Of a stretch of 64,000 nt of DNA, positions 41,973 to 60,251 are shown in pieces. The position numbers and the translations under genes were made by a program. Each line of letters begins with the position of its first letter. The stretch's first letter is position 1. This DNA comes from a virus. The stretch covers positions 83,744 through 147,743 of IMG/VR virus record IMGVR_UViG_3300025534_000004. One strand, given 5' to 3'. The notes under the pieces were generated by a model. The model saw nothing but the letters and a program-made list of their open reading frames with translations. It searched no databases and was not told where the DNA came from.

Positions 41973-42048
41973 GGACTGGAACGCTCAGGGTGTCCGGGCC
42001 TCCCCGGCACCCTGAGTTTGACCCGGACCCCGGCCGGGCCGGGTTGCG

Positions 42049-42531
42049 TCACGCGGCAAGGATGGCCGTCCGATAACGCTCCACGAAGCGGTGCCAATTC
42101 GGCACCTCGGTGCTGCGCAGCGGTATCCGGTGCGTACGGATGAGTTCCCGCATCACTGCGACCGGTATCACCGCCTCCGCGATCTGCCCGGCCCGTTCCT
42201 CCGAAAAGCCGTCCGTCGTAATCCGGCCGTCCAGTACGTCCCTGACCATCGCGGGCGTGACATCGCCCTCAAAACGGTCGAGCATGTCGCCGAGCAGAAC
42301 ATTGACACGGCGGCTGATCTCGGCGTTGAGGCCGTGCCTCCCGGCGTCCCCGGCCCGGAACAGCCGGTTCCATTCCTCACAAAGGGGCACGAGCGCACGA
42401 GCCTGCGCGAGCGTCGTTTCGATGTGCGTCGGACCGCCCATCTTCATCGACATAGCAAAGCTGGTCGGGCTCAGAAGTGTCCCAGCCGTCGCGGTACAAA
42501 GTATGGCACCAAGCAACGCACGACGATTCAT
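42049..42531 (-). CDS. secreted protein (Tat-like RR signal)
   Basis: MNRRALLGAILC..SFA. Confidence 0.55.
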   Translation of the reverse strand: MNRRALLGAILCTATAGTLLSPTSFAMSMKMGGPTHIETTLAQARALVPLCEEWNRLFRAGDAGRHGLNAEISRRVNVLLGDMLDRFEGDVTPAMVRDVLDGRITTDGFSEERAGQIAEAVIPVAVMRELIRTHRIPLRSTEVPNWHRFVERYRTAILAA

Positions 42532-42620
42532 CGGTAACATCCTCCGAGAACGCATTGGCCCAAGTGCCAACACGTATTGTGCTTCCTCCTTACCGCCCAT
42601 TTTGGCGGTCACTGCCAACC

Positions 42621-42872
42621 CTAACGTGGGGCAAACAGCAGAAACATTGCCGCCCGGTCCTTGCTCCGAAACGCAACGCCCAAGGCGCCTGCCCATCGGT
42701 AATCCTGTCCTTTGACAAGACCGCTGAGGGCCGGATTGCCGAGGATCGCTGCCGCACAGGCGATGATCTCCTCATCAGACGCCCCATCGGGCAGGACAGC
42801 CTCGACGACATGACCGAAGGCTTGCCTTGCACGCGGAAAGTACGTCCAACGCACCACGTTGGCAAGCGACAT
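42621..42872 (-). CDS. hypothetical protein, paralog family
   Basis: VAFRSKDRAAMFLLF. Confidence 0.55.
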   Translation of the reverse strand: MSLANVVRWTYFPRARQAFGHVVEAVLPDGASDEEIIACAAAILGNPALSGLVKGQDYRWAGALGVAFRSKDRAAMFLLFAPR

Positions 42873-43013
42873 TCCGGCCTACCGCGAAAAAAAATCGGTG
42901 CAAAAGACTGTTTTCATTTTGTTCACACCGAAAAATTCGGTATGACGCCATTGACTTGGTTCGGCGTTTATGGTCCTATCGCGGCCGATTTCAGAACGCC
43001 CTTTGAGGTCCTG

Positions 43014-43946
43014 ATGCGCCCTACCCTCGCCGAACCACCCCGCGCCGATGCCGTGTTCATCCTTCTCGGCTCCCGCGCCGCGCGGGCATGGTTCCCCGAT
43101 TTCCGGCGGCCATCCGACTGGGATGCCATCGCCTCGCACGAGGCCATCTCGCGATGGGCCGACCGGAACCGCGCGAGGATCACTTCCCTGACCCGCAAGA
43201 GCGACCGGAAGATGGCCTGCCGGATGCACGGGGGCGTCCGGATCGAGTTCGAGCTTCTGGGCAGCAACCCCTCGACGGAGATGCTGGCCGAGATGGCGCG
43301 GGCGCGCCGCTTCAAGCCAACCATCTTTCCGGGCGGCGTGGCGGCCTATGCGGCGACGCCTGCGGTGCTCTGGCTGACCAAGCGGAGCCATGCCTACTGG
43401 CCCATCCATTGGGAAAAGACGATGGCCGATCTGCATTGGCTCAAGGCCCGTGCCGCCCCGGCGACGGCCGCCGAATTGGCCTATTACGAGGCCCGGCTTG
43501 CCGAGAACAAGGCGCGGCTCGGTGACCGCAAGGCCAAGCTCGACATGTCGAACGAGGCATTCTTCGCCAAGAGCGAGCGGGCGGTCAGGCGGGTGGTCGA
43601 ACACGACCGCCTGCACGAATGGGTTGCCTATTATGATCGCCCCCTGTTCGAACGCTTCAAGACCGACCTCAGCAAGGCGGCGCTGAGCCGTGCCCTGTTC
43701 GAGCAGGCTCCCATGCTGGACAAGCTCCGCCTCGTCCGCGAGGAGGCGATGGTCATCGCCCTTGAGCGGTACCTCATCCCCGGCAAGCTCACCGACCCTG
43801 CCGAGGCATACGCAAGCGCCCTCAAGCGCATCTGCACGACGCTGACCTCGGGTTGGTTCCGCGACTTCGCCATCGACCACTGGCCCATCCTGAACACTCC
43901 GGACAAGGACTTTGCGCCGCCGGTCATGGCGAGGATCGCCGCATGA
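43014..43946 (+). CDS. nucleotidyltransferase-like phage protein
   Basis: LLGSRA..SDWDAI (GS..DxD); HDRLHEWVA; TTLTSGWFRDFA. Confidence 0.7.
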   Translation: MRPTLAEPPRADAVFILLGSRAARAWFPDFRRPSDWDAIASHEAISRWADRNRARITSLTRKSDRKMACRMHGGVRIEFELLGSNPSTEMLAEMARARRFKPTIFPGGVAAYAATPAVLWLTKRSHAYWPIHWEKTMADLHWLKARAAPATAAELAYYEARLAENKARLGDRKAKLDMSNEAFFAKSERAVRRVVEHDRLHEWVAYYDRPLFERFKTDLSKAALSRALFEQAPMLDKLRLVREEAMVIALERYLIPGKLTDPAEAYASALKRICTTLTSGWFRDFAIDHWPILNTPDKDFAPPVMARIAA

Positions 43947-44377
43947 GACACGATGCGGAAGCGGAAGGCAAGCTCGCCCCTATTTACGAGGCAGTCCGCC
44001 ACGCCTTCACAAATCCCGTTTCGGACACCCCGACGATTCTCCGGCTGGACGTGCAGGGCTCCGACTTCAGCCTGTTCCTCCTGTCGGGACAGCCGGACCG
44101 GTCGGAACGGCCGGGTCGCTGCCCAATTGTCGCCTTCGTGGTGTTCGAGGACGAGAAGGCCGGGGTCGCGGCCTGCGAGGAACTCGGCTTTCCGGCCATC
44201 CGCTATCCTTCGCCGGGCGTCTGCTGCGTCGGCCTGCACCAACCCGACCCCCTGCCGCTCCTCATGGTGCTCGGGCGCATCTGCACCATTCATGAGCGCA
44301 TTCCGCCGGGGGGCGAGTCCCTGCTGGTGCCGTATTTCGGCGAGCGGCTCGTGTTGGGCGCGAGCTACACGCCATGA
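43943..44377 (+). CDS. hypothetical protein
   Basis: ATGA coupling. Confidence 0.55.
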   Translation: MRHDAEAEGKLAPIYEAVRHAFTNPVSDTPTILRLDVQGSDFSLFLLSGQPDRSERPGRCPIVAFVVFEDEKAGVAACEELGFPAIRYPSPGVCCVGLHQPDPLPLLMVLGRICTIHERIPPGGESLLVPYFGERLVLGASYTP

Positions 44378-44455
44378 GACCACACCAAGACCCGCAATCC
44401 CATTTCAGGATGCCCCATAGAAAAAGATTCCCAACCCATCCGCATTGATGAACTG

Positions 44456-44707
44456 ATGCAGGATTTGATGGACGGGCTGCTGATCGCCAAGAACTACCCT
44501 GCTTGGGAGGACGAGGCGCTGGCACTCGAAAACCGCCTTTTCACCTCCCATGACGCGCTGATGATGGACATTGCCGAGGCGCGCAAGGCCGGGATCACCA
44601 CCGTCTCGCGGCTGGCCTCGGAGGATTTCTTTCGGACTTCCAACGACATCCGAGCCTTCCTGCTACGGGTGCTCGCGGACATCAGCCACCCCGGCAGGAC
44701 GGCATGA
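44456..44707 (+). CDS. hypothetical protein
   Basis: Coding-like ORF. Confidence 0.5.
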   Translation: MQDLMDGLLIAKNYPAWEDEALALENRLFTSHDALMMDIAEARKAGITTVSRLASEDFFRTSNDIRAFLLRVLADISHPGRTA

Positions 44708-45153
44708 CCGAGGTCGTCAAGGTCTAGCGTCCGCACAAGAAGCGGATCGGCAATGGCTGGTACAACCGCGATACCACCTTGCTCCTGTCCTGCGGCACCC
44801 GACTGTGCTTCCGGCTGCATAAGAAGGCCCCGCAGGGCTTTCCGATCCGCATCCCCCGGTACGTCGCCCTGCGGCACGGTTCGTGGAGCCAAGCGCACTG
44901 GGAGACCGTTCGCGCCGTCGTGGAGAATATGGGCTACGAGCACTGCTACGGGCCGAAGTACGAGCATGACTGCATTCGCCTGCGCGACTGCGAAGCCCTG
45001 CTGCCGATCAAGATCGCGGGCGCCCTCATGCAGGTCGAGGAATACCTGAGCGGGGGCGACGAAACGCCCTCCCTGCTTTGCGACTGGTTCGGGATCGAGA
45101 TGCCCCCGCTCCCGTCGATTCCGCCGCTCCTGCCACGTCCGGCACTTGCATAA
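44704..45153 (+). pseudogene. hypothetical protein with in-frame TAG at codon 8
   Basis: ATGA-coupled start, TAG at 44725-44727, same frame continues as ORF 44779-45153. Confidence 0.45.
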
Positions 45154-45176
45154 TGTGGTTCAGTCGTCTATAAATA
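45146..45176 (+). promoter_or_regulatory. tmRNA promoter: sigma70-like plus TATAAATA late box
   Basis: TTGCAT-N17-TATAAA overlapping TATAAATA. Confidence 0.65.
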
Positions 45177-45180
45177 CCTC

Positions 45181-45437
45181 GGTTCTGATGACCAACTCGG
45201 AATAGGCTGATCGGACCGGAGGGCAGTACTCCGCCCGTCCACCATTACTCCATGGGCGGGAAATAGGATCGACGACGGCAGTAAAGGACGTTGCGAGGAA
45301 CTCGGTAAGACACGACCGGCCGGGCAACCGGCATCAGTTCATCGTTACAAAGGCCAACGACAACGAGGCTTTTGCTCTCGCCGCCTAAGGCGTGAGCGCG
45401 GAGGCGGGGACCTGCCGGGCAACAGAAGTGGTCCCCA
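45181..45437 (+). ncRNA. ssrA: permuted two-piece tmRNA, tag ANDNEAFALAA
   Basis: T arm CGGAG-GGCAGTA-CTCCG, CCCGTCC-ACCA (45234-45244), 9-nt intervening segment, GGGCGGG-AAATAGGATCGAC (45254), G3:U70, tag ORF 45353-45388; outer ends approximate. Confidence 0.95.
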
Positions 45438-45466
45438 TCAAAAATCCCTTTCAGGACTCCATTTCA

Positions 45467-47026
45467 GTGCAGGACCTCTGGAACCGCTACATCGAGAACG
45501 ACCATGCGAAGGTCGTCGCCGAAGCGGACAAGGCTTTGTTTGCCGCTTCCGCCCCGGACATGCTGCATGTATCCGGCCTGTCGCTTCTCTCCCTTGGCCG
45601 TATACAGGAAGCCCTGCCCCGGCTGCGGGCGGCACTGACGCTGTTCCCCTCTGCGTCGTGGTTCGCCAATACCGCCATCGCCACTCTCAATTCCGGCGCG
45701 ACGCAGGAATCCGCCGCCTTCGCCAAGGCGGGCCTCGTCCTCTATCCGGGGGACGCGGTGCTGAACTTCGCCTATGGCAATGCCCTGATGGCGGCCAATG
45801 ATTGCGACGCCGCGCTGGCCTTCTTCGAGAAGGCGCTCGCCATCGACCCATCCATGGCGGATGCCCGGCTGAATCTGGCGAACTGCCTGCGGCGGCTGAA
45901 CCGCTTCGCCGAGGCGCTGGCGGCCTATGACGGGTTGCTCGCCATGGAGCCGGGCAATATCCCGGCACTGGTCAACAAGGTGAGCGCCCTGATGGAGACG
46001 GGGCGCGATGGCGAGGCCGAAGCGATCCTCTTGGACCTTGGCAAGACCGGCCTGCCCGAGGTGGACTTCATGCGCTCCATGATCCGTCTTGCCGAGGGCG
46101 ACTATGAACAGGGTTGGGCGCTTTACCGCAAACGATGGTCCTGCGCTTTTGCCGCCACGGACGCGGCGCAGTTCCGCGCGCCGCTCGCCAACTCCCTGAC
46201 GGACATCGCAGGCAAGCGAGTGCTGGTCTCGCACGAGCAGGGTTTCGGCGACAGCTTGCAGTTCGTCCGTTACGTGCCGCTGCTGGCGCGCTTCGGCGAA
46301 ATGGTCGGCTGTCGCGTCGCCCTGCTGGCCCCGAAGCCGCTGGCACGCCTGTTCGCCAATCTGGACAAGGTGGGTGAGGTGGTCACCTCCCGCGACGATG
46401 CAGGGCAGATCGACCTCGAAGTGCCGATGCTCGACCTGCCCTATCTGTTCGGCACGAAGCTCGACACCATCCCGGCCACCCTGCCCTATCTCCGCGCCCC
46501 GGCGGAACTGCTGGACAAGCGGCGGCTGCCCTTCGCGAAGGACGATACCCGTCTCAAGGTCGGCCTGTGCTGGGCCGGGCAGATGCGCTCGAATCCGGAC
46601 CTCGCGGCGGTGGACCGGCGCCGGTCCATGCGCCTCGCCGACTTCCATGATCTCGATATGGACGGAGTGGCCCTCGTGAGCTTGCAGCTTGGCGAGCCCG
46701 CGCGGCAGGTGGAGGAAGTCCCGGCGGGCATGGAGATCATGACACCGCTCGATCCGTCCTTCGATTTCGCCGACACGGCGGCCGTCATCGAGCAGCTTGA
46801 CCTCGTGATCACCGTGGACACGGCCGTCGCGCATCTTGCTGGGGCGCTCGGCAAGCCGGTCTGGGTCCTGTCGCGCTACGACGCCTGCTGGCGCTGGCTC
46901 AAGGGCCGCGACGACAGCCCGTGGTATCCGAAGGTCATGCGCCTGTTCCGGCAGACGGTCCCCGGCGACTGGTCCGGGCCGCTCGCCGAGGTCCGCGCGG
47001 CGCTCGCCGAACGCGCGGCACGCTGA
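45467..47026 (+). CDS. TPR-repeat glycosyltransferase family 9-like protein
   Basis: TPRs; EQGFGDSLQFVRY; VGLCWAG; DLVITVDTAVAHLAGALGKP; SPWYP. Confidence 0.9.
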   Translation: MQDLWNRYIENDHAKVVAEADKALFAASAPDMLHVSGLSLLSLGRIQEALPRLRAALTLFPSASWFANTAIATLNSGATQESAAFAKAGLVLYPGDAVLNFAYGNALMAANDCDAALAFFEKALAIDPSMADARLNLANCLRRLNRFAEALAAYDGLLAMEPGNIPALVNKVSALMETGRDGEAEAILLDLGKTGLPEVDFMRSMIRLAEGDYEQGWALYRKRWSCAFAATDAAQFRAPLANSLTDIAGKRVLVSHEQGFGDSLQFVRYVPLLARFGEMVGCRVALLAPKPLARLFANLDKVGEVVTSRDDAGQIDLEVPMLDLPYLFGTKLDTIPATLPYLRAPAELLDKRRLPFAKDDTRLKVGLCWAGQMRSNPDLAAVDRRRSMRLADFHDLDMDGVALVSLQLGEPARQVEEVPAGMEIMTPLDPSFDFADTAAVIEQLDLVITVDTAVAHLAGALGKPVWVLSRYDACWRWLKGRDDSPWYPKVMRLFRQTVPGDWSGPLAEVRAALAERAAR

Positions 47027-47032
47027 AACGAG

Positions 47033-47057
47033 AAAGGGGCGCCTCGGGCGCCCCTTC
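47033..47057. terminator. bidirectional terminator hairpin
   Basis: AAGGGGCGCC-TCG-GGCGCCCCTT between convergent genes. Confidence 0.65.
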
Positions 47058-47062
47058 GCTGT

Positions 47063-47236
47063 TCACCACCAGACCTCGTACCGCAGGCCATAAGGGTTGC
47101 GGTACCATCGTCCCTTCTCGACCTTCTCCATGCGCCACGCGAATTCCTCCGGCGTTTGCGCCTCGGCAAGGTACCGCCCGATATCGTAATCGGGCGACAT
47201 GCGCGCCGCGATGGCGCGAAGCAGGCGGCGGATCAT
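47063..47236 (-). CDS. small protein (57 aa), absent from ORF track
   Basis: MIRRLLRAIAARMSPDYDIGRYLAEAQTPEEFAWRMEKVEKG. Confidence 0.5.
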   Translation of the reverse strand: MIRRLLRAIAARMSPDYDIGRYLAEAQTPEEFAWRMEKVEKGRWYRNPYGLRYEVWW

Positions 47237-47603
47237 TGTCCGATCCCCTCCGGGCGCTTTGCGTAGAGGGTGAGGTAGGCGGCATGGAAACGGGTCAGGG
47301 CGGCCCAGAGCTTGCGGATCATAATCGGCACCATGAAAATGGAGTTCAGTGGACGAGCTTTCTGCCGCCTATTTACGCCTCCAACATGGTGCGATGCACA
47401 ACGATCCTGATGCGACAGCCATGCATTCGATGCATGTCTCGCCTAGGCTAGGCCCTCGCTTGCTGCGCGCGGTTCTGGCCCGGATCGGCGACAACGGTCC
47501 ACTGCTCGGCAAGACCCCGCACCCAGCCGATTGCCGTTGTTCACCTGCTCTCACCTGACAGGAAAAGCCCCGACCGGGGGACCGGCCGGGGCGCCGTTGT
47601 AGC

Positions 47604-48587
47604 TCAGAGGCCCAGAAGCTCGCGGAGGCGGGCGAAGTCATCGGCGAAGAAGGTCACGACCACCACGTCCTCGGCGCGGTCATTGATCTCCTTGGCGCCC
47701 TTGAGCAGGTCGTGCAGTTCCTTGCGGACCTTCTCGCCGCTCGGGCGCCGCAGCACCGCGCCGGTCAGGTGCTTGGCCGAGGCGCGGGTCTTGCCCTTGG
47801 CCGCCGCGTTCTCGATGGCGCTGGTCAGGTCGGCCAGCGTCTTGGCCTCGTCGCCGCCATTGGCGGTCAGGCGGTTCAGCACGAAATCCGCCGACACCTT
47901 GCCGCCGTTCACCAGCGCCCGGATGTCCTTGCCGACCGCGCCGAGGGTGAGAATCTGCTGCACCCGCACCGTGGACAGGCCGAACCGCTTGGCGATCTGC
48001 GCCTCATCCCAGCCGAGACCGAGCAGCTTCTTGTAGTTGTCGGCCCGCTCGAACACGCTGAACGGCTTCGAGCCGTTGCGGGTGATCTGGTTGGCGATCA
48101 TCTCCGCCTTGGAGGCGTACCGCTCGACGATCACCGGGACCGTCAGCACCTCGGCGCCATAGACCTCGATGGCCCGGAGCGTGGCGCGCAGGCGGCACTC
48201 ACCGTCGGTCACGTAGGGGCGGCCGTCCTCGAACACGACCGTGATCGGCTTGTCCCTGAGGAAACCGATCTCGGCGATGGAACGGGCGATGGTGTCCACG
48301 TGCTCCTGATTCGACGGATCGGAGAAGTCGCGGGAGTTGAAGCCCGGCATCACGCCGATCAGGTAGGGGTTCAGGGTGTAAACATCCTGCCGCTTGTCGG
48401 AGAGGCCCTGAATGCCGCCCTTCCTCGCATTCGCCAGCCCGGCGAATTTGGCCTCGGCCTCGGCCGCGAGCCGCTTGGCGAACTCGCTCTGCGGAGCAGA
48501 GGCGGCCTTGAAGTCCACGGCGATGACATTGCTGGCGGCCTGCGCGGCAACCGGAGAAGTGGCGATCTGGGCGACAGAGGCGTTCAT
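47604..48587 (-). CDS. ParB/Srx-family partition-like protein
   Basis: GFNSRD, IARSIAEIGF..PITV..VTDGECRLRA, HTH GWDEAQIAKRFG. Confidence 0.8.
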   Translation of the reverse strand: MNASVAQIATSPVAAQAASNVIAVDFKAASAPQSEFAKRLAAEAEAKFAGLANARKGGIQGLSDKRQDVYTLNPYLIGVMPGFNSRDFSDPSNQEHVDTIARSIAEIGFLRDKPITVVFEDGRPYVTDGECRLRATLRAIEVYGAEVLTVPVIVERYASKAEMIANQITRNGSKPFSVFERADNYKKLLGLGWDEAQIAKRFGLSTVRVQQILTLGAVGKDIRALVNGGKVSADFVLNRLTANGGDEAKTLADLTSAIENAAAKGKTRASAKHLTGAVLRRPSGEKVRKELHDLLKGAKEINDRAEDVVVVTFFADDFARLRELLGL

Positions 48588-49018
48588 CAGGGAAAGTCCT
48601 TCTCAAACGGCGTTGTCCTGTGGCCCCTTTCTACCAGCTTCCGGGCCGGGCGCAACAACTTTTTTTCGGTCTGCACCGATTTTTTTTGGTTCGCGCCGAA
48701 CAGAAACCTCGTGATGTTGTGAGCAGACGGGCGACCCGCGTCTCGGGCTTGCGCCAGATTTCTCGTGCAACCCTTGCGTGTATACGGTATGGTTCTGCGC
48801 TCTGCGGCGGAAAGCCGTTCGAGTCCCCAACCGGTGCTCCGTCCCCCCCCCGATGTACAATGAGCGGGCATCGGAAGGTCCCCCTTGCGCGGATCGGCCA
48901 TCCCCCACATGCGCCGATCCGCGCATTTCCTCCCGGCAAACCCGGTTTTCCGAATGTTTTTTTGGTTGCACCACATTTGCGTCGTGCTACGATGGCCGTC
49001 CATTTCAAGGAGGCACAG

Positions 49019-49612
49019 ATGCTCAATGCCGTCACCGGGGTTCCCCCGCACCGCGAGAATGCCGATGTGGTCCGGCTCGATCTCGATGCGGGCCTGACCA
49101 ACAAGGCCATCAAGCTCCTGCGCGACGGCCTCGACATCAGCTTCCATCGCCAGCAGTACCCCGAGGCCCTCTGCGATAGGATCATCGTCTGGGGCAAGGG
49201 TTCCCGGCGTCAGGATGCCATGCTGGAAGCAACCCGCGTCATCGACACGCGGACGCGGTGGACCAGCACCACGACCATGGTCACCGAAGCCTATGCCAGC
49301 GTTGGCGGCGGCGGCACCACATGGGCCACCATCGCCTCCCTGCTCAAGGTCAACGACATTCTGTGGCTGGAATGGAGGTGCGACAGCCACTCGAACGCAT
49401 ACTGCCGGGGCGCCAAGGCCGACCACACCTTCCTCGGCTACGAGGGAAAGCCCCTCTGGCGGGAGGATGAGTGGAGGGGCCTGCACGGCGACAGTCTTGA
49501 ACTGGTGATTGAGCGACCCGCCAAGCGCGCGGGCGGCAGGCCGAAGATGCTCCGCTTCCTGCTCTACGTCTCCATCTGCCCCGACAACTCGGCGCGGATG
49601 ATCCAGAAATAG
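49019..49612 (+). CDS. hypothetical protein adjoining origin
   Basis: AAGGAGG RBS; TTGCAC..TACGAT promoter. Confidence 0.7.
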   Translation: MLNAVTGVPPHRENADVVRLDLDAGLTNKAIKLLRDGLDISFHRQQYPEALCDRIIVWGKGSRRQDAMLEATRVIDTRTRWTSTTTMVTEAYASVGGGGTTWATIASLLKVNDILWLEWRCDSHSNAYCRGAKADHTFLGYEGKPLWREDEWRGLHGDSLELVIERPAKRAGGRPKMLRFLLYVSICPDNSARMIQK

Positions 49613-49614
49613 GC

Positions 49615-50588
49615 GGTCGGTAAAGTCCAAGATCGCTCGGACGCGCTCCGAACGGGGCTTGGTCGGTAAAGTCCAAATTCTCCCGGAGCCGCCCAGACGG
49701 GCCTCCCCGGTCGGTAAAGTCCAAATCCGGCCGGGACGCGGCCCTCGGTCGGTAAAGTCCAATTTCCTCTGCGGTGGCGGCTCCTGCGGTCGGTAAAGTC
49801 CAACTCCGACCGGGCGGCGCCCAGACAGGCTCCCGGTCGGCAAAGTCCAAATCCGGGCGGTGGCCCCCGGTCGGTAAAGTCCAAAATCTCCCGGAGCCGC
49901 CCAGACGGGCCTCCCCAGACGGGCCTCCCCAGTCGGCAAAGTCCAATCCCGCCCGAGCCGATCCGGGCCTCGGTCGGTAAAGTCCAAATCCGGGTCCGGC
50001 GGCGGCCCCCGGTCGGTAAAGTCCAAATGCGCCCTTTGGCCCCACACCCCACCGAAGAACCACAAGGATTTATAAGGAGTTGCGGGAGATCGTTAAGGCA
50101 CTGCCGAAAGGGCATGGTCGGCAAAGTCCAACTCCGAGCCCTTTGAAGAAGGCGCCCCATCCCGTTCCGAATTGGACTTTACCGACCGACTGGACTCTAC
50201 CGACCGCATCCCCAGCCGCGCAGGTGCCCCCTTCCGCCGGGTTTGGACTTTACCGACCGGCTTCCTCCGCGACTCCATGGCCCGAAATTGGACTTTGCCG
50301 ACCGGCTCCTCTGCGACTCGAAGGTCCGAAATTGGACTTTGCCGACCGGTACACGGCGATCCGCCACCACTTATCCACAGGTTATCAACTGGACTTTGCC
50401 GACCGCCCGTCATAATCCACAGGCGCGTTCTTGGACCTTACCGACGCCGCCTTGGACTTTGCCGACCAGTCGAAAAAAGCAAAACCCGCGTTTCCAACGG
50501 CTTGGACATTCCATCCACTGGGCTTTACCGACCATACTAATAAGAGTCTCAAATACGATTCCAAATAGCTTTGGTCGGTAAAGTCCAA
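49615..50588. repeat. iteron array / plasmid-type replication origin (about 21 copies of GGTCGGYAAAGTCCAA)
   Basis: 11 forward copies 49615-50131, 9 reverse copies 50172-50533, one forward at 50573; AT-rich 50534-50572; directly upstream of repA. Confidence 0.92.
50371..50379 (+). promoter_or_regulatory. DnaA box
   Basis: TTATCCACA consensus; near-match TAATCCACA at 50413-50421. Confidence 0.75.
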
Positions 50589-50650
50589 ATAGACACCGCC
50601 CGTGGAATCGTGCATTGGGAAGCCGTATCGAAGCAGTCCGCTGGGAGGCG

Positions 50651-51601
50651 ATGGGCATGGGGAAGGTACATGACCTACTCGCAACGAAGGGCAAGGCCGC
50701 ATCCCTGACCGAGGCCGAGGACGACAGGCTAAGGAGGGCCATTCAAACGGCAGCCTCCTACATGGCCGACGAGAACGTAGACACCCTCTTTTTCTTTTCC
50801 GGGTGGGCGTTGGCCGGTCTGCCGCATCGCCGGATTCCCGACGACAGAGAGTGGCGCGTCGAAACCGATCACGTGACGCTTCTCGTCGAGCCGGGTCGCA
50901 GACCCGATGCGGGCGGCCTGAGCCCCTTTGTCGGCGTCCCATACGGCAGCCGGGCGCGGCTCATCCTGCTGTATCTGCAATCCGAAGCCCTGCGGACCCG
51001 CCGCCGTGAGGTCGAACTCGGCGGCAGCCTCAATGCTTGGATGGCAAAGCTCGGCATCTCCATCGGCGGCAAGTCCTACAAGGAGGTCCGCGAACAGGCC
51101 GAGCGCATCTCCCGCTGCCGCCTGACCTTCCAGATGACGCGCGCTGGCCGCACCGCCTTGGTGCAGCAGAACATCCTCGACAGCGCCATGTTCGTCGATG
51201 ACGACTGGCGGCAGGGCCGCCTCGCGCTGGATGTCGCGCGCCTCTCCGAAGGCTTCTTCGAACAACTAATGCGCCACCCGGTGCCCGTCGAGGAGAGCGC
51301 CATTCGCGCCCTGAACAACAATTCGATGGCGCTCGACCTCTATTGCTGGCTGGTCTACCGGATGCACGCGCTCGACAAGCCGACGAGAATCCCGTGGACA
51401 TCCATCCACAAGCAATTCGGCACCGGCTTCAAGCAGATGAAGCACTTCAAGCCCGTCTTTCTCGACAATCTCGAAGTGGCTCTCGCCGTTTATCCGGACG
51501 CCAAACTCGAACTGCTTGATGAAGGCATCCGGCTCCTACCGAGCCCGCCCCCGGTTGCCAAGGTGATCGTCCCGGTCGCCAAAGTCGCGGCCATCGCCTG
51601 A
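50651..51601 (+). CDS. repA: plasmid-type replication initiator RepA (RepA_C family)
   Basis: LPHRR, GVPYGSRARLILLYLQSEA, SMALDLYCWLVYR, IPW..QFG, LAVYPDA; GGAGG RBS. Confidence 0.9.
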   Translation: MGMGKVHDLLATKGKAASLTEAEDDRLRRAIQTAASYMADENVDTLFFFSGWALAGLPHRRIPDDREWRVETDHVTLLVEPGRRPDAGGLSPFVGVPYGSRARLILLYLQSEALRTRRREVELGGSLNAWMAKLGISIGGKSYKEVREQAERISRCRLTFQMTRAGRTALVQQNILDSAMFVDDDWRQGRLALDVARLSEGFFEQLMRHPVPVEESAIRALNNNSMALDLYCWLVYRMHALDKPTRIPWTSIHKQFGTGFKQMKHFKPVFLDNLEVALAVYPDAKLELLDEGIRLLPSPPPVAKVIVPVAKVAAIA

Positions 51602-51714
51602 CCCGAACGCGACCGCACCACAATAACGCTTTCATTATCGTTTTGAACTGCGTTATACTGGTTCGCCTCACAGCCAACCGGCTGCGACGCGCAACCACTT
51701 TGAGAAGGTCCTTG

Positions 51715-52974
51715 ATGAAACTCGACTTGACGACGCTGCCCTCCGGGCTGCGTGTTGTGACCGCGTGCCTCCCCGGCTTCCAGTCTGCTTCCACCGCCGT
51801 GTTCGTCCGCGCGGGTTCACGCTGCGAGACCGAGGCGAATGGCGGTATCGCCCATTTCCTCGAACACATGGCCTTCAAGGGAACCGCGAAGCGGTCCGCC
51901 TTGCAGATCGCCCGCGAGGTCGAGGAACTCGGCTCCTACATCAATGCCTATACGGGCACCGAGGTCACCGCCTACTACGTGAACGGCCTCGGCCGCAACG
52001 TGGCGCAGTCGGTCGCCATCCTCGGGGACGTGCTGACCAACTCGGCGTTCGATCCGAAGGAAATCGAGGTCGAGAAGGGCGTGATCCTGCAAGAGATCAA
52101 CCGCCACCTCGACAACCCCATGAGCGTCGCCTTCGACGGTTTCGGCCTGACCGCTTTTCCGGAGCAGGCCCTCGGCCGTCCCATTCTCGGCAAGGCCGAA
52201 TTCATCCAGACGGTGAACCGCGATCATTTCGTGGAGTTCGTCGGCCAGAACTACCATGCCAGCAACATGGTGGTCGTGGGCACCGGGGCCGTGCAGCATG
52301 AGGACTTCGTTTCCATGGTGGCCGAGCATTTCGCCGGTCTCGCCACCGGTCAGGCTCCGGCTTGGGAACCGGCCGTCTATCACGGCGGCATCCACCGCGA
52401 GACGACCCGGCCCTTCGAGCAGGTCACGGTGCTGCTGGGCTTCCCGAGCGTCGCGGAGTGCGATGCCCGCTTCTGGCGGCACAACCTGCTGGCCGATGTG
52501 CTGGGTGGCGGCATGTCCTCCCCGCTTTTTCAGGAGGTCCGCGAGAAGCGCGGCCTCGTCTATTCGACCCACGCATGGTCCGACCACGCCACCGACCACG
52601 GGCTGCTGATCATCGAAGCCGGAACCACGACCGCACATGTCGATGAATGCATCAAGGTCGCCTGTGAGGAGATCGCGAAGCTGACGCGGCATGTCGAGGA
52701 ACGCGACCTGTCGCGCGCCAAGAACTCGGCGCTCGTGGGTCTCGCCACCCGCAAGGAGAAGCCCTTCGCGCTGGCCGAGTCCCTCGCCACCGGCCTGTTC
52801 CAGCATGGCACGCTGCGCGCGCCGGAGGAGAGGATGGCGGAGGTCGAGGCCGTGACTCTCGACGAAATCCGGTCTGCGGCGGAGGAAATCATCGCCTCCA
52901 CGCCGACCATCTCACTGGTCGGTCCGGCACCGGATACCGACTATCTCGGGATGGTGAAGTCGATCCTCGGCTGA
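51715..52974 (+). CDS. M16 (pitrilysin) family Zn peptidase
   Basis: AHFLEHMAFKGT (HxxEH), NAYT, GGGMSS.LFQEVREKRGLVY. Confidence 0.95.
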   Translation: MKLDLTTLPSGLRVVTACLPGFQSASTAVFVRAGSRCETEANGGIAHFLEHMAFKGTAKRSALQIAREVEELGSYINAYTGTEVTAYYVNGLGRNVAQSVAILGDVLTNSAFDPKEIEVEKGVILQEINRHLDNPMSVAFDGFGLTAFPEQALGRPILGKAEFIQTVNRDHFVEFVGQNYHASNMVVVGTGAVQHEDFVSMVAEHFAGLATGQAPAWEPAVYHGGIHRETTRPFEQVTVLLGFPSVAECDARFWRHNLLADVLGGGMSSPLFQEVREKRGLVYSTHAWSDHATDHGLLIIEAGTTTAHVDECIKVACEEIAKLTRHVEERDLSRAKNSALVGLATRKEKPFALAESLATGLFQHGTLRAPEERMAEVEAVTLDEIRSAAEEIIASTPTISLVGPAPDTDYLGMVKSILG

Positions 52975-53030
52975 AACGGGCAGTGGCCATGCGGCCCCTC
53001 CCTCAGCCTCCGCAGGGCTGGGTCGAACAC

Positions 53031-53059
53031 GAGAAAGGGCGCCGCTGGCGCCCTTTCTC
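53031..53059. terminator. bidirectional terminator
   Basis: GAGAAAGGGCGCC-GCT-GGCGCCCTTTCTC. Confidence 0.7.
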
Positions 53060-53066
53060 TTTCCGG

Positions 53067-53978
53067 TCAGCCCTTCCAGCCCGGAGGCGGCTGGCAGCCC
53101 GTCTGCATCGCCGGGAATGCCTGCGGCTGGGAGGCGAACTTCTGCTGGCGGCGGCCAACCTCGATGCCCCGCTGACGCAGGCCCCGCGCGCTGTCGTAAT
53201 AGACGACGAGCATCGCAAGCATGTCGCCGCGCTCGAAACGCACCTCAGTGGTGGCGAAGTCGGTTGCCGCGCCGAACCCCGTGCCGAGGCTCTGCACCGC
53301 GTCGGCGTTATTTCCGACGGTGGTGGCGTTATGAGACAGAAGGGTCTCCTGTGCGGCACAGCCCACAGCGATTCCATTCAGACCGGCGCCCAAGGCAACT
53401 GCCTTTGCGGTAGCGAAATCGCGCGCGTCAGCCACGCCGCGCAGCACACCATGGATCGACCCTTGCGACCAACCACCATCGGCCATGCCGCCAACCACTC
53501 CCTGTGACCAGCCGCCAGTGGCAGATACCACCCACGGCGTGACGCCAGTGTTCGGAAAGCCGGGCGCGGGCATGACCGGGTGACGAAAGACCGGCCGTTC
53601 CCTCTCCCGGTAAACCAGTGCGCCGATGACGCCGTTGTTCCGGGAGGAGCCGGTCATGGCGGTCGCGTAGCTGCCGTGCTTGCCCGCGAACTCGAAGCGG
53701 GCAGCCTGCGCGTTGTCGAGCTTCCAGCCGGGGATGCGGATCGTCGAATTGGCATCGACGATATAGCCGCTGGACTGTGGCCCGGCTTCCTTGCCGTCGA
53801 GCACGGAAAGGCCGTCCACGCTCAGCACGACCTCGACGCGGAAGGGATTGGCGTTGCGGACCTCAAGCTCATAGGCCGATCCTTCCCGGCCCTCCACGTA
53901 ATGCTGGCCGCGATGGAAATACTCGGTGATGGGCTTGCCCTTCACCAGCACGGAAAGGGTGATGTTGTTCACGAACAT
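53067..53978 (-). CDS. conserved hypothetical protein
   Basis: RVEVVLSVDGLSVLDG..GYIV..IPGW..NGVIG..LGTGFG. Confidence 0.75.
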   Translation of the reverse strand: MFVNNITLSVLVKGKPITEYFHRGQHYVEGREGSAYELEVRNANPFRVEVVLSVDGLSVLDGKEAGPQSSGYIVDANSTIRIPGWKLDNAQAARFEFAGKHGSYATAMTGSSRNNGVIGALVYRERERPVFRHPVMPAPGFPNTGVTPWVVSATGGWSQGVVGGMADGGWSQGSIHGVLRGVADARDFATAKAVALGAGLNGIAVGCAAQETLLSHNATTVGNNADAVQSLGTGFGAATDFATTEVRFERGDMLAMLVVYYDSARGLRQRGIEVGRRQQKFASQPQAFPAMQTGCQPPPGWKG

Positions 53979-53990
53979 GTCTGAAATTCC

Positions 53991-54656
53991 TCAGCAAGCG
54001 GCGGTCTGGGCGCCAAAAAAGCTGGTCGTAGTGGCTGCGGCAGCACGGAAAGCCGTGGTCGCAGCGGAAAGGGCCTGCATGGTCTGACGGGTCTCGCGCG
54101 CCTCAAATGTCTTGATGTTCCCTTCCGGGAAACCGAGCTTCAAGCCCGTGGCGGCTGAGCGAGGCGGGCCGAGATAGACACAGGTCCAGCCGAGCGTATT
54201 GCCATTCAAAACGCAATCACGTGCCTGTTCCACGGTATTCCGGCTGGCGTTGTCGTCACCATCGGTCATGACGACGAACAACACGTTGGGCCGGATGTCC
54301 CATTTAGCGAGACGTGTTTTCAGGACGGCGGCGCGCCACACGATGGCGTCGTACAGATTGGTCCACTCACCCGGCACATAGGTCGCCAGCGTGAGGTCCG
54401 GCACCAGCCCGATCTCAATGTCGGTATAGGGCGTCCGCAGGCCGCGCGTGTCGAATTTGGTGAGGGTAAGGAGGCAAACGCCGGGCTGGCCCCGCTGCTC
54501 ACGGAGGAAGTCGTTATAGCCGCCGATGGTGGCGGCCTGATCCATCGAGCCGGTTTCGTCGAGAACGAACTCGATGATGGTGGGCACTGGGTACTCGACG
54601 GACAGCGCGGAATGCGCAGCCGCGACCCGGCGCCTAATGCGCTTGGTCATAATCAC
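53991..54656 (-). CDS. vWA-domain protein
   Basis: VLDETGSM (MIDAS), TNLYDAI, VMTDGDDNAS; TAAATA at 54740-54745. Confidence 0.85.
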   Translation of the reverse strand: MIMTKRIRRRVAAAHSALSVEYPVPTIIEFVLDETGSMDQAATIGGYNDFLREQRGQPGVCLLTLTKFDTRGLRTPYTDIEIGLVPDLTLATYVPGEWTNLYDAIVWRAAVLKTRLAKWDIRPNVLFVVMTDGDDNASRNTVEQARDCVLNGNTLGWTCVYLGPPRSAATGLKLGFPEGNIKTFEARETRQTMQALSAATTAFRAAAATTTSFFGAQTAAC

Positions 54657-55613
54657 TTTCTCCCGCAGGACTTAACTGCCGCGCCGACTTGCGCGGGCTC
54701 ACTGCCTGCAAATGGACGGGGTTAATTCCCCGCTGCACTTATTTAGCACAGTGCATTTACCGAAAGCGATATGATTCGCACGGGCAGAGCATCCCTTCGC
54801 GCCTGCCGGTCGCACAGGCGCGGCAGGACGGCAATGGATCACCGCTCGGCGCGACCTTCCAGCTTCGCCACGGTGCGCATCCCCAGCAGAACCAGCGCCT
54901 CAGCGCCGAGAGCGAATATGGAGGCACCCGACGGGCGCATCATCACAGCGGAAATGATGAGGGCGATGAGGAGCAGCCAAATGGAAAGACGGCCTCGGAC
55001 TAGGAAATCATTCATGAAAACCTCTTTCAATGATACGCGCCCGATATCACATCGATACTCCGTGCGCAACCGAATTATAGGGTGCAGGCCGGACACAGCC
55101 GACGCCAACGGACGCGCCGTCGCGGATCAACCTGCCCTGATGGACAAGGCGGCGCCAGCATACAGTGACACAGAATTGCGCGGCCTCACGCTCGATCCCC
55201 CGGCCTCGCAGATAGCATTCGACATCGATCTTCTCGACCCAAGAGCCTCTCCACGAACACTCCATCGTCTGCTGGACCGCAATGGCGCCGACGGCCTCCT
55301 CGACAAGGAGGTCGAAGTCCTCCCATGCCATTCCCTGCGGGAGGTACTTGGCGAAATACGCCTGATCGTACTCAAGCGTGCATCGGGCAAGGGTGAGACC
55401 GGGGCGGCTCATGGGGCCGATATAACCAAAAAAATAGGGTTGACCACAACCGGAATATATGGAATAGAGATACCACCGCGCATGAGGGCGTTCCGCCCTT
55501 GGCGACGTGCGTTGGCAGGTGGACAGCATCCCGCCGTGGCTCTGCAAACCCATAGCCGCCCGGAAACACAGGCCGGGTCGCGCGGTACCTCAAAGACTCC
55601 GAAGCTGGTTCAA

Positions 55614-55910
55614 ATGGAACTCCATTGCGGCGATTTCGGCCCATTTTCACCGGGCTTCTCCCGGCAGATGACCGGGCGTTTCGCGGCCCGCGTGGACATC
55701 CCGCCCAGCGAGTTCGAGCGGCTCGAAACCGGTCGGTACGAGAAACCGGACCGGGTAACCCCTTTCGTGGTCTATCTGCACGAGAAGGTCGGGCGCTGGG
55801 GGACGGACTGGTACATCGACCATGACCCCCTCCATCTCGAAGGCGGCGAGTGCGTCTACTTCGCCTGCCCGAACGACGCCGTCTATTTCCTGCTGCGGTG
55901 GTCGCCATAA
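55614..55910 (+). CDS. hypothetical protein, paralog family
   Basis: VYFACPNDAVYFLLRWS. Confidence 0.55.
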   Translation: MELHCGDFGPFSPGFSRQMTGRFAARVDIPPSEFERLETGRYEKPDRVTPFVVYLHEKVGRWGTDWYIDHDPLHLEGGECVYFACPNDAVYFLLRWSP

Positions 55911-55949
55911 TTCAGTTGACAAGACCGGATTTCGTGGCATCACCGGTTC

Positions 55950-56228
55950 ATGGATGATGCCGCCGATCACTGGCCGATCTCATGGTCCCACGTGGTACCG
56001 CGAGGGGACCTCTACCCGTTCGCGGTACAGGCCAATCGTCCCCTGACGAATGACGAGTGGCTCGACATGGTCCGCTTCTGCACCAACACGTTCGGCAAAG
56101 GCGGCAAATTCCCCGAGCCCGGTAACCAGTGGTTCGGTACCGACGCCGCAGCCGGATCAGGGCACGGATACTTCGCCTTCGCGTCCGAGGGCGACCTGAC
56201 CCTGTTCGTCGTGACCTTCACGCGCTGA
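55950..56228 (+). CDS. hypothetical protein, paralog family
   Basis: FCTNTFG..FAFASEGDLTLFVVTF. Confidence 0.6.
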   Translation: MDDAADHWPISWSHVVPRGDLYPFAVQANRPLTNDEWLDMVRFCTNTFGKGGKFPEPGNQWFGTDAAAGSGHGYFAFASEGDLTLFVVTFTR

Positions 56229-56338
56229 GACACGCCTTTCGGTCTCCGAGCATAAATAGGGGTCTTTCGATCAAGCAAACGTTAATCCGGACACCACAAG
56301 GATAAGTAGTCGGCCAAAGAACCAAAGAGGGGTTTCAA

Positions 56339-58165
56339 ATGGCCGACAAAATCAAGAATTTCGGGTTGAGCGGCGTCGCTTCCGACGTTCAACTCGGCAA
56401 GGCAGGCAATCGCCTGAAGTCCAGCGAAGGAGCCATCGAGGCACGCAATGCTGCGGGCAACGAATTGGCGAAAATCCGCGCGGCGGCAGCGGTCGATCCC
56501 AATGACGTGGTCATCCTGTCCCAGCTTCAAAACCTGAGCGGGGAGCTGGATGGCTTCCACATCCAGCTTGGCGACGTGACCACCGATGGTGACGGGTCGT
56601 GGCAGCCGGGTGCTGTGCCGCTGACCAACGATACCCCGGTCAGCCAAGCCATCGACAAGATGAACGCGATCCTCGCGCTCCTCACGCCGGATGCGCCGCC
56701 GAACTTCCCGAACGGCACGCTCTCCGTCAGCAACTCCAGCGGCACCTCTCCGCTTCTGGCCGATGGCGCCGTTCCTGACAACACCGGGGGCAGCACTCTC
56801 AGCGCAGGCGATTCCGTCACCCGTATCACCGCTACCGGCGTGAACTCCAACACCTTTCAGGATGTGGGACCGGGCGATTCCGGTACTGTCAGCCTGATCG
56901 TGAACGGCAGCGCCGTTGGCTCGCGCACTCTCACCGGCTCGGGCGACGCTGGCACCTACAATGGCCTCGTCATCGCCGACCAGAAGGACTATCCGACCGA
57001 CACTCCGGGCTTCTGGAAGTCCATCGACGTGAGCGTATCCAATGCCGCCGTCCAGCAGGGCATCAACTCCTTCAAGCTGACGCACTCCGGCGCTGGCAGC
57101 ACGAACGAGGTCGTGTTCGTCCGTGACAACCTGACGGCCACGCCTGCGGTCTCCAACGGTTCCGTCACGCAGGAAGCCGCTGGCACCTTCGCCTACTCCT
57201 CCTCTGTCCCGCATTACGGCAATGGCGGTCAGATCAAGGTTGCCCTGTCGATGAGCAACCTCGCTGGCGAGACCTATTATGGCGGCAACAACCCGCTCAC
57301 CATCACCGGCACCAACGGCATCTTCTCGTCGCAGACCTACACCTACGCCAACATCGGCATCGTCACGCCGATTGCCCGACAGACGACCAGCGCGGTGGCG
57401 ATCACCCCGGTGACGATCAGCGTGAACGGCAACAACGTCCATGCCTCCGGTGTCGTGCAGGCAACTGCCCGTAACGTCAATGGCGCCTCGTCCGCCACCA
57501 CGGTGAGCCCGGTGACCATTCTCGTCAAGCGCGGCACTGCTCCCACGACCAAAATCGACGAGATGAGCATCCCGGTGACCGGCCTCGGCTCCGCGCCGAA
57601 CACCAACAACGCGGTCCGCGTCGGTGGCTTCGACGATGACGATACCGCGTCCGGCACTGCGAGCGAGTGGGATGCAACGGAGGAACTCCCGGCGCATGAG
57701 GCCACGGTCGTCGCTGGCGTGCTCAAGCACGACACGACCGACTATTCGACTGGCTATCTCCCGGTCGGTCCCGATCTCTCGGTCGGCCGCGATGGCGCCC
57801 AGTATGCCACCTTCTCGTTCAACCGTGCCGCCGTCTCGACCTTCAAGATCAAGGTCACGGGCAGCTATGCTGGCGTGTGGGTGAAGCTGCCGGGCGTCTC
57901 CGACAACGCCACGATCTCCCCGAACGGCGCTGCGGCAAATGGCTGGTGGGACGCGTTCAAGCCGTATGACGGCGCTGGCGTTCCGGGCGAAACCGGTGAT
58001 TCCACCAATGGCTGCGCCCTTGGCACCGTGATGACCGGCAGCAGCGGTACCTTCACGATCACCTTCGGCACCCAGTCGTCCACGAATGCGACTGGCAACA
58101 CCATTCTGGTCCGCATCAAGCTGACTGCGGGGCAGAGCATCACCGAACTCTCCTTCTCGAACTAA
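56339..58165 (+). CDS. virion structural protein (beta-rich, tail/baseplate-associated)
   Basis: TAAATA at 56253-56258; G/T/S/N-rich composition; strong codon bias. Confidence 0.7.
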   Translation: MADKIKNFGLSGVASDVQLGKAGNRLKSSEGAIEARNAAGNELAKIRAAAAVDPNDVVILSQLQNLSGELDGFHIQLGDVTTDGDGSWQPGAVPLTNDTPVSQAIDKMNAILALLTPDAPPNFPNGTLSVSNSSGTSPLLADGAVPDNTGGSTLSAGDSVTRITATGVNSNTFQDVGPGDSGTVSLIVNGSAVGSRTLTGSGDAGTYNGLVIADQKDYPTDTPGFWKSIDVSVSNAAVQQGINSFKLTHSGAGSTNEVVFVRDNLTATPAVSNGSVTQEAAGTFAYSSSVPHYGNGGQIKVALSMSNLAGETYYGGNNPLTITGTNGIFSSQTYTYANIGIVTPIARQTTSAVAITPVTISVNGNNVHASGVVQATARNVNGASSATTVSPVTILVKRGTAPTTKIDEMSIPVTGLGSAPNTNNAVRVGGFDDDDTASGTASEWDATEELPAHEATVVAGVLKHDTTDYSTGYLPVGPDLSVGRDGAQYATFSFNRAAVSTFKIKVTGSYAGVWVKLPGVSDNATISPNGAAANGWWDAFKPYDGAGVPGETGDSTNGCALGTVMTGSSGTFTITFGTQSSTNATGNTILVRIKLTAGQSITELSFSN

Positions 58166-58177
58166 AGGAAACGTACC

Positions 58178-59269: not shown

Positions 59270-59274
59270 CCAAA

Positions 59275-59304
59275 CGGGATGGGCACCTCCGGGTGCCCAT
59301 CCCG
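59275..59304 (+). terminator. terminator-like hairpin
   Basis: CGGGATGGGCACC-TCCG-GGTGCCCATCCCG. Confidence 0.6.
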
Positions 59305-59921
59305 CCCTCAATGGATATCCTGCGGCAGGGGATCGACGGCGTGCCCTTCCGGGAGGTCGCCATCATCGGTGGGCATCTCTACCAGCCGGTCATGCAGAGC
59401 TTCGTGGCCGCCAGTTGGGGGAGATCGTCGCTGGTCACAGCCTACGATCTCCCCCGAAAGCGCACGATCCGTGGTCCTACCCCGAGGGGGCACCCTCCGT
59501 AGGAGCATCCATCCACGGCCTGCCGCGCTAATAGCGCCCCTCGGGCCACCCGGCTCACCGATACCTTGCGGCATGAAGGCGTCACCGTCGTGCGTGGGAA
59601 GTCTCTACACCAGCCACCAGCATAAATCAAGGATGTAAAACCACATTATCATGGTTGCGCCGTGGTCCGCCTGCGATAGGATGATCGCAACGGAAACCGT
59701 CGTTCCAGCATTCCAATGCCCACCGTTCCTTCACACCTTGCGCGGCAGGCGGGACAGCGCCTCCAAGAAGCGGCACTTTCTCGTCCCCATCGCCGAGTAC
59801 GATGCCAGAAGCCGCTACGGCTTCGTCGTGGACCCGGTGCGGCACAAGGAAATCGCGGCAGCCTGACGCCCGCCGGATGCGGCGGTGCTGTATAAATAGC
59901 GCGGAACCAAGGATGTGGCCC

Positions 59922-60251
59922 ATGGACCTCCGCGTTTCCAATGCCGTCGAGATGGCGGCCTCCCACTACCTCCGCGACGTCCTGACCGACCCGGAATATG
60001 CCGACCTGTTGCGCGCCACCGTGCGCAGGTTCGTCGATGGATCGGTGCTGGTACTGGTTCTGCGCGATGAGGCGTCGGCCTCGGCGTTCTCCACCCTTGC
60101 CGGGCGCCCCTTCCCTGTCGCCGATGGCGGCAGCGCGACGCTGCGCTTCGAGGTCGCCAATCCAGCGGCCGAGCGCGAGGAACGGCTTGAGGCCCGCTAT
60201 GGCAGGCCCGCTCTCGCGGACCTGCTGCTCAATCAGATGATCGACCTCTGA
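59922..60251 (+). CDS. late hypothetical protein
   Basis: TATAAATA at 59891-59898. Confidence 0.55.
   Translation: MDLRVSNAVEMAASHYLRDVLTDPEYADLLRATVRRFVDGSVLVLVLRDEASASAFSTLAGRPFPVADGGSATLRFEVANPAAEREERLEARYGRPALADLLLNQMIDL

Follow-up and report, generated by a model that had tools for sequence, protein, structure and literature searches.

A predicted iteron replicon of plasmid type in a T4-like jumbo phage

A 64,000-nucleotide stretch of viral DNA, hereafter the window, was analysed (IMG/VR record IMGVR_UViG_3300025534_000004, positions 83,744 to 147,743; coordinates below count from the first nucleotide of the window). At 49.6-51.6 kb, its sequence identifies an intact iteron replicon of a plasmid family, with an initiator gene (repA), an operator, an AT-rich region, DnaA boxes and iterons. 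The carrier is a T4-like jumbo myophage of the Atu_ph07 group with a genome of about 485 kb. Giant T4-like phages are treated as strictly lytic. Judged from sequence, the replicon most likely serves a non-lytic, plasmid-like state, either a plasmid prophage or a long-lived carrier state; the chance that this reading is correct is put at about even. A temperate lifestyle as a low-copy plasmid is unproven. Virion and packaging genes and repA are located on one molecule in four assemblies; membership in the phage-plasmids is not established.

Initiator and origin

The replicon comprises the following elements. The last line gives an iteron located far from the array.

49615-50131, + strand: distal array of 11 iterons, opposite in orientation to the proximal array
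50172-50533, - strand: proximal array of nine iterons, reading toward repA; presumptive origin core
50371-50379, + strand: perfect DnaA box TTATCCACA within the proximal array
50413-50421: DnaA box TAATCCACA with one mismatch, within the proximal array
50534-50572, + strand: AT-rich stretch ACTAATAA...CAAATA...CAAATAGC, presumptive repA promoter and unwinding region, conserved in an alignment with three plasmid replicons
50573-50588, + strand: single inverted iteron, perfect and oriented like the distal array, some 70 nt upstream of repA; presumptive autorepression operator
50657-51601, + strand: repA, predicted iteron-binding replication initiator of the RepA_C family, 314 amino acids (aa)
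2075-2090, - strand: lone perfect iteron, 47.5 kb from the array, between tRNA-Met (1928-2004) and an IS1595/TnpB element

On all sequence-level criteria tested, RepA is a member of the RepA_C iteron-replicon family. The match to Pfam RepA_C (PF04796; E 3.2e-21, 76.8 bits, cut-off 26) was also recovered by a six-frame search of the contig and bears out the initiator type named in a first-pass annotation of this sequence. The real start is ATG 50657, preceded by GGGAGG. A homology search returned 3,553 homologues. The nearest non-self sequences share 64-71% identity; the named ones belong to Paracraurococcus, Acidisoma, Roseomonas, Dankookia, Roseicella and Belnapia. The closest homologues with a readable context adjoin genes for ParA, resolvase and transposase, as is usual on plasmids. 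A quick maximum-likelihood tree placed the phage RepA in a nine-member clade (SH-aLRT 100) together with Paracraurococcus and a plasmid-like contig (L014). This clade is nested among the initiators of Acetobacteraceae plasmids, and the branch leading to the phage protein is not unusually long or short. Initiators related to the phage RepA serve replicons of 45-880 kb.

All 83 invariant columns of a 35-sequence alignment are kept in the phage RepA, and its length of 314 aa compares with 304-334 aa in the homologues. An AlphaFold2 model (pLDDT 85.9, pTM 0.85) predicts the two-winged-helix initiator fold. Foldseek matched the model with a probability of 1.0 to RctB domains 2-3 (5tbf, E 3e-6), RepE54 and Rep-iteron/DUE (DNA unwinding element) complexes.

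Between 49615 and 50588, the 16-mer GGTCGGyAAAGTCCAA is present in 21 copies with at most two mismatches, 11 of them perfect. The chance expectation for such matches is about 0.08 in the whole 147.7-kb contig of the record. The box TTATCCACA at 50371 is the sole perfect DnaA box in these 147,743 bp and lies inside the array; both array and box had been recognised at first pass, and both stand. The layout of the proximal array is homologous to the 4-7 direct iterons of related plasmids. One inverted iteron is located at the same position before repA in all three plasmid replicons compared. The distal array is proposed to be a copy-control locus acting by handcuffing or titration. With 21 iterons in two orientations, the array is an uncommonly rich natural system in which to study copy control by iterons. 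The lone iteron at 2075-2090 overlaps the start of a possible 40-codon open reading frame (ORF), and its chance expectation is below 0.1, far too low for a random match. This copy is a possible remote RepA site. A scan of 47.3-51.8 kb for consensus sigma-70 promoters gave no match. A GC-skew signal of an origin was considered at the replicon and rejected: the skew has no inflection at the locus. The RepA origin has therefore not been the dominant origin of the phage.

By its sequence, the phage replicon was captured from Acetobacteraceae plasmids. It belongs to the same family as the RepA_C replicons of Roseomonas mucosa pTT14-7 (CP099478.1), R. marmotae p1318-3 (NZ_CP061094.1) and contig L014, with 60-71% identity of the initiator to the nearest ones. 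The phage and the three plasmids share a common order: direct iterons, a TTATCC-type box next to an iteron, an AT-rich stretch with the conserved motif CTAATAG, a single inverted iteron and repA. The iteron of L014, GTGGGATTTACCGACC, is identical to the phage iteron at 12 of 16 positions. The phage differs in the number of iterons, with 21 in total against 4-9 in the plasmids, nine against 4-7 in the proximal array and, for the distal inverted iterons, 11 against two in L014. The plasmids have ParA, whereas the phage replicon has no parA-parB nearby and is located on a 485-kb tailed-phage genome.

Carrier phage, host and integrity of the locus

The record has 147,743 bp and 63% GC, and the window is its right-hand 64 kb. 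IMG/VR classes it as linear, with a CheckV completeness of 28%. PHROG matches revealed a UvsX-type recombinase, a gp32-type single-stranded DNA-binding protein, the large terminase subunit (TerL), tail sheath, tail tube and fibres. TerL shares 56% identity over 95% of its length with that of the 490-kb Agrobacterium phage Atu_ph07; Sinorhizobium phage Phosso and the PA5oct group were the next-best matches. A 484,642-bp contig (ENA ERZ795072 NODE_2; SPAdes, 13.8-fold coverage) encodes the exact RepA protein together with the proteins of two genes on its left, ORF197 and a ParB-like gene. In the readable stretch of NODE_2, a single base among 12,201 deviates from the record; the stretch extends 8.3 kb past the window. 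Because of TerL, the gene set and the same proteins on the 484,642-bp contig, the record is seen as about 30% of the genome of a T4-like jumbo phage. The intact RepA_C replicon, the phage genes and this contig uphold the first-pass proposal of a plasmid replicon inside such a phage.

Three lines point to an acidophilic member of the Acetobacteraceae as host: a transfer-messenger RNA (tmRNA) of alphaproteobacterial type, the relatives of an IS1595 transposase and the grouping of RepA with Acetobacteraceae plasmids. The nearest relatives of the transposase are from Acidocella and Acidiphilium (73-86%). The two features are located as follows.

45142-45437, + strand: permuted two-piece tmRNA, Alphaproteobacteria type (Rfam RF01849, 126 bits, E 9e-35)
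2520-5132: IS1595/TnpB element, in which the transposase gene (4111-5076) overlaps a 521-aa TnpB/Cas12f-like gene (2546-4111)

The latter is the insertion sequence (IS) already reported at first pass. A second TnpB gene is located just past the window end on the 484.6-kb contig.

Four assemblies (IMG/VR, Logan, JGI and ENA SPAdes) agree across both replicon junctions. A Logan contig (SRR5285069, L010) is 100% identical over 40657-52633, from a histidine kinase gene through a TPR-glycosyltransferase gene, the ParB-like gene, the array and repA to the start of a peptidase gene. A JGI contig (3300002918) is 100% identical over 50049-61601. The composition of repA equals the phage mean, with a GC content of 0.633 versus 0.635, a GC content at third codon positions (GC3) of 0.806 versus 0.810 and a codon-usage correlation of 0.888 versus 0.872. 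Because the four assemblies agree and repA has the average composition of the phage, the replicon locus is not a chimera or a recent cointegrate. The replicon proposal has survived this check, and the closest plasmid RepA is 71% identical.

A replicon slot in related phages

The replicon is located in a slot between two landmarks.

47604-48587, - strand: gene of a ParB-like DNA-binding protein (phrog_1033 'ParB-like partition protein', 1.8e-47)
53067-54656, - strand: conserved phage gene pair marking the right border of the slot, with products of 303 aa and of 221 aa (phrog_7371 for the smaller)

The relatives in IMG/VR form a clade of huge phages with TerL of 49-69% identity and contigs of 282-608 kb. 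RepA_C was absent from all 11 records of relatives, five of them at least 90% complete, in a search that found the window's own record as positive control. A family-B polymerase and a DnaB-type helicase were both present in each of the six RepA_C-less relatives searched. Since 11 relatives do without RepA_C and six of them have polymerase and helicase, RepA is not part of the core replication apparatus of the clade.

A further relative, L112, is a 206,954-bp contig of GCA_902730395.1. It is collinear, in inverted orientation, with the window at 27-56 kb, with 11 shared genes and a median identity of 50%. Its ParB-like homologue (P0126) shares 42% identity with the protein of the window; the syntenic protein of the RepA-less 608-kb phage G003 shares 37%. 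In L112, the ParB-like gene and the 303-aa/221-aa pair (50% identical) flank a second RepA_C gene, with order and orientation as in the window. This RepA shares just 32% identity with the one described here and 68% with a RepA of another lineage, found on plasmids of Roseomonas mucosa. The L112 origin has about ten iterons (GGATGGGyGrATCAGCG) in both orientations, an AT-rich stretch, two TTATCCAC boxes and a perfect palindromic operator before repA. The ParB-like gene is divergent from repA across this origin. In G003, 4.5 kb of unrelated ORFs without iterons lie between these landmarks, and the huge phages G004 and G007 retain only the gene pair, which is 42-49% identical in the three. Two related phages thus carry different complete host-family replicons at one locus, which could result from either cassette replacement or independent capture. 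Either history speaks for retention of the replicon for a function. Genes for ROS/MucR, RMF-like, YqeY, Thg1 and NADAR proteins on L112/L180 (CACVFT010000001.1, 117021-139825) are also collinear with the window.

Other searches for relatives of the cassette gave little. The pattern of iteron pairs had no match in viral, genome (185,579 species genomes) or metagenome collections. A search with a neighbouring gene of 608 aa found one distant 222-kb phage without synteny and without RepA_C. The 303-aa flank gene revealed nothing useful in metagenome contigs and only three RepA-less huge phages in viral contigs. RepA_C was absent from 50,697 deposited phage records (INPHARED), except for one record of 3.9 kb. 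Three IMG/VR contigs of 38-45 kb (L007, L008 and L009) carry a RepA_C protein 35% identical to the RepA described here and are candidates for small phage-plasmids of the RepA_C type. One of them (L008, IMGVR_UViG_3300013767_000084, 38.8 kb) encodes an S24 repressor, ParA, ParB_N, RepA_C and KfrA in a row at 3592-12628.

Proposed function and alternative explanations

In the proposed mechanism, RepA monomers would bind the nine iterons of the proximal array and act with DnaA of the host, bound at the two boxes, to melt the AT-rich region. The opened origin would load the host helicase and replisome, enabling theta replication without the T4-type replisome of the phage. The operator iteron would repress repA. 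Together with the 11 distal iterons and perhaps the copy at 2075, it would titrate RepA and handcuff the origin, resulting in about one copy per cell. Lytic replication would be performed by the phage's own machinery of polymerase, helicase, UvsX and gp32. The anatomy behind the step of RepA, iterons and DnaA was read from the sequence, and we infer all remaining steps.

A plasmid-like state is supported by a complete, presumptively autoregulated, iteron-rich replicon that is accessory to the clade and recurs as a host-matched cassette. The presence of the IS1595/TnpB insertion and the lack of a GC-skew inflection at the locus are in line with it, as is the use of related initiators by plasmids of 45 to 880 kb. 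An excess of iterons combined with an operator typifies stringent control at low copy number, as in P1, F and RK2. The match of the replicon to plasmids of the host family and the second cassette in a relative suggest selection for copy-controlled replication driven by the host replisome. On a more tentative view, the T4-like giant phages of Acetobacteraceae (about 200-485 kb) may keep a slot dedicated to a host-plasmid replicon, swap the RepA_C lineage according to the local host and, besides having a full lytic replisome of T4 type, also live as a unit-copy megaplasmid.

Several observations weigh against a plasmid-like state. The part of the phage genome examined is 156 kb (the 147.7-kb record and the next 8.3 kb), about one third. 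ParA (PF01656) was found neither in the 147.7 kb nor in the genes called for the adjoining 8.3 kb, and the suggestion made at first pass to look for it elsewhere in the phage ended without a find in this part. Integrase, S24 peptidase/repressor or another recognisable lysogeny switch were not found in the part examined either. The only regulators found there are of the XRE type. Of the repressors listed in the first-pass annotation, two double-XRE proteins are confirmed, and an S24/CI-type repressor is absent from the same part. TerL relatives were absent from 401 Acetobacteraceae species genomes, which leaves room for a culture-borne extrachromosomal phage, and all phage copies are metagenomic. 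The expectation of an extrachromosomal replicon in bacterial genomes thus found no support, with TerL in none of the 401 and the iteron pair in none of the 185,579 genomes. The cultured relatives Atu_ph07, AP-J-162 and PA5oct have a lytic or at most 'persistent' lifestyle (PMC11242549; 10.1101/2024.12.31.630880). Pfeifer et al. caution against reading a plasmid state from partition genes, which in virulent SPO1-like phages were no sign of one (PMC7969092). The two XRE proteins are encoded as follows.

29952-30641, - strand: double-XRE protein (tandem HTH_3), possible regulator
35296-35952, - strand: double-XRE protein (tandem HTH_3), possible regulator

The main rival of a plasmid-like state is a role in lytic growth. 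The cassette may be the origin for the first round or rounds of lytic replication, with a theta start by RepA and host DnaA before the T4-type recombination-dependent mode and with no plasmid state. The relatives are lytic (PMC11242549), any phage must have a way to initiate replication, and origins of the T4 type are not well defined in this clade. The lack of partition and lysogeny genes in the part examined would fit, as would the presumptive repA promoter, which is of the host sigma-70/plasmid type and would fire immediately upon entry. A lytic origin is nevertheless considered less likely than a plasmid-like state. The 11 relatives, including the five that are at least 90% complete, do without RepA_C, and a GC-skew inflection is absent at the locus. 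Firing would be limited by 21 iterons and a presumptively autorepressed promoter, a design ill-suited to a lytic burst. In P1, the iteron replicon serves the prophage only, and a separate origin is used for lytic growth; this precedent also speaks against a lytic origin here.

Less probable still is a cassette that was acquired in a variable 'moron' slot as a passenger or weapon and does not add a mode of replication to the phage. It would then be DNA of a neutral or selfish kind, or would act on resident plasmids of the same family through incompatibility or titration. The slot is indeed variable, with ORF197 and an M16 peptidase in the window, an 84-aa ORF in L112 and unrelated ORFs in G003. 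Two RepA lineages at one place could mean a hot spot for foreign DNA, and a large iteron array resembles an incompatibility determinant. However, an intact RepA in which no invariant residue is lost and whose branch is not unusually long argues against this, as does a fully ameliorated composition. Both phages retain initiator, operator, DnaA boxes and an AT-rich region, which goes beyond iterons, and a replicon with these iterons that could be targeted was not found in the viral, genome and metagenome collections. An assembly chimera or a very recent phage-plasmid cointegrate is highly improbable. It comes to mind with a sequence from a metagenome, and the repeats did break one assembly within the array, where contig L011 begins at 50049. 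The same joins are nevertheless present in IMG/VR, Logan, JGI and ENA SPAdes, with 100% identity in two and one mismatch in 12.2 kb in the third, and L010 spans the region from the histidine kinase to the peptidase gene, with the ParB-like gene, the entire array and repA in between. Identity to the nearest plasmid RepA is just 71%, repA has the composition of the phage, and a syntenic cassette is present in an independent relative.

Comparison with known systems

The replicon of the P1 plasmid prophage consists of oriR/incC iterons, repA and incA iterons, plus parABS. The phage replicon resembles it by a presumptively autoregulated iteron-binding RepA, DnaA boxes in the origin and an extra iteron cluster outside the origin, which limits copy number in P1 and is proposed to do so here; like P1, the carrier is a myophage with other machinery for lytic replication. 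The initiator family is different from that of P1. The control array is upstream of the origin, whereas it is downstream of repA in P1, and the genome is five times larger. Unlike in P1, ParA-ParB-parS, C1-type immunity and an addiction module were not found in the part examined. The best structural match of the RepA model is RctB, which acts at ori2 of Vibrio cholerae chromosome 2; sequence similarity is not detectable. RctB is an initiator controlled by many repeated sites, some of them negative. Its site types differ from those of the phage, and its replicon is chromosomal.

The combination of virion genes with a gene for plasmid replication on a single molecule is also known from pBtic235 of Bacillus thuringiensis (PMC9700832) and from the phage-plasmid groups of Pfeifer et al. 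(PMC7969092). These are demonstrated or isolate-derived replicons of other phage lineages. The survey of Pfeifer et al. (2021) left out elements larger than 300 kb and included only two of 250-300 kb (PMC7969092). Large phages of the T4 superfamily and other jumbo phages, counted as virulent, persist in isolates and coexist with their hosts outside classical lysogeny (10.1101/2024.12.31.630880). Screening of these persistent jumbo phages revealed no plasmid replication genes and only orphan ParB matches (10.1101/2024.12.31.630880). Unlike them, the phage described here has a full replicon.

A paper describing an iteron replicon in Atu_ph07-type phages was not found in the literature. New are the RepA_C family in a jumbo phage, the extreme array in two orientations and two replicon lineages in the same slot. 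If the plasmid-like state is true, the phage would exceed all known phage-plasmids in size and would be the first of them to have T4-type biology, which would widen their size and lineage range. It would offer a concrete mechanism for the phenomenon of 'persistent virulent jumbo phages' and would directly link the gene pools of phages and megaplasmids.

The ParB-like gene and other genes of the slot

The remaining features of the slot and its left side are listed below.

45392-47026, + strand: gene with tetratricopeptide repeat (TPR) and glycosyltransferase-9 domains (Pfam TPR_19 8e-17, Glyco_transf_9 1e-7); start at 45467 in other assemblies
47566-47592, - strand: intrinsic terminator of the ParB-like gene, 11-bp stem with 10 GC pairs followed by a T-run
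48588-49018: non-coding spacer of 430 bp between the divergent ParB-like gene and ORF197, without codon-position GC signal in the GC3 profile
49019-49612, + strand: ORF197, with ribosome-binding site AAGGAGG and a GC3 value of 0.86; its stop codon adjoins the first iteron
51643-52974, + strand: M16 (insulinase-type) peptidase (Pfam Peptidase_M16 2e-35, M16_C 6e-36)

The ParB-like gene is monocistronic and has its own strong terminator. Matches of its protein to curated families are weak: Pfam HTH_ParB at 0.002 and TIGR00180 at 3.5e-9 with 36.7 bits, below the cut-off. Pfam ParB_N was not detected. At the position of the canonical GERRxRA, the N-terminal CTP-binding motif, the protein reads GECRLRA. 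The best PDB match is H. pylori ParB (2e-4). Homologues are present in 61 viral contigs of IMG/VR and 273 phage records; in none of the 61 IMG/VR loci is RepA_C located within 8 kb of the homologue. In deposited phages, its relatives mainly come from virulent ones (Agrobacterium phages Milano and 7-7-1, Jersey-like Salmonella phages and Klebsiella phages), a further point against a plasmid-like state.

An origin of this gene as a plasmid-derived partition gene was considered and rejected, as its family is mainly found in virulent phages without ParA and also in the RepA-less G003. By sequence, it is a resident phage gene that adjoins the replicon and not a plasmid partition module. The ParB-like gene seen at first pass is thus present, and the partition role given to it falls away: it is weak evidence for partition because the family is common in virulent phages and a ParA partner is missing. 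Speculatively, the gene may still be functionally linked to the replicon or have a role in segregation.

The listed ORF at 48620-49612 is coding only from 49019, the start of ORF197. This protein has one weak homologue among 5.8 billion proteins, is absent from the cassette of the relative and had no family or fold match in profile and structure searches. A tRNA-like element in the spacer at 48.6-49.0 kb was considered and rejected, as there was no tRNA or Rfam match. The M16 peptidase is cargo of the slot outside the replicon and has no counterpart in L112. Transposase or integrase genes were not found among the larger ORFs and called genes at 44-56 kb, in agreement with the first-pass view that IS or integrase borders are absent. 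The TPR-glycosyltransferase gene is the conserved left neighbour of the slot and 50% identical to the syntenic gene in L112.

Two loci of the window deserve mention outside the slot region. An Amidoligase_2 domain is present in two adjoining large paralogous genes (554 and 588 aa) at 12342-15826 on the - strand. The histidine kinase at 40419-41972 on the + strand is a complete, soluble, phage-encoded hybrid enzyme with PAS, HisKA, HATPase and receiver domains.

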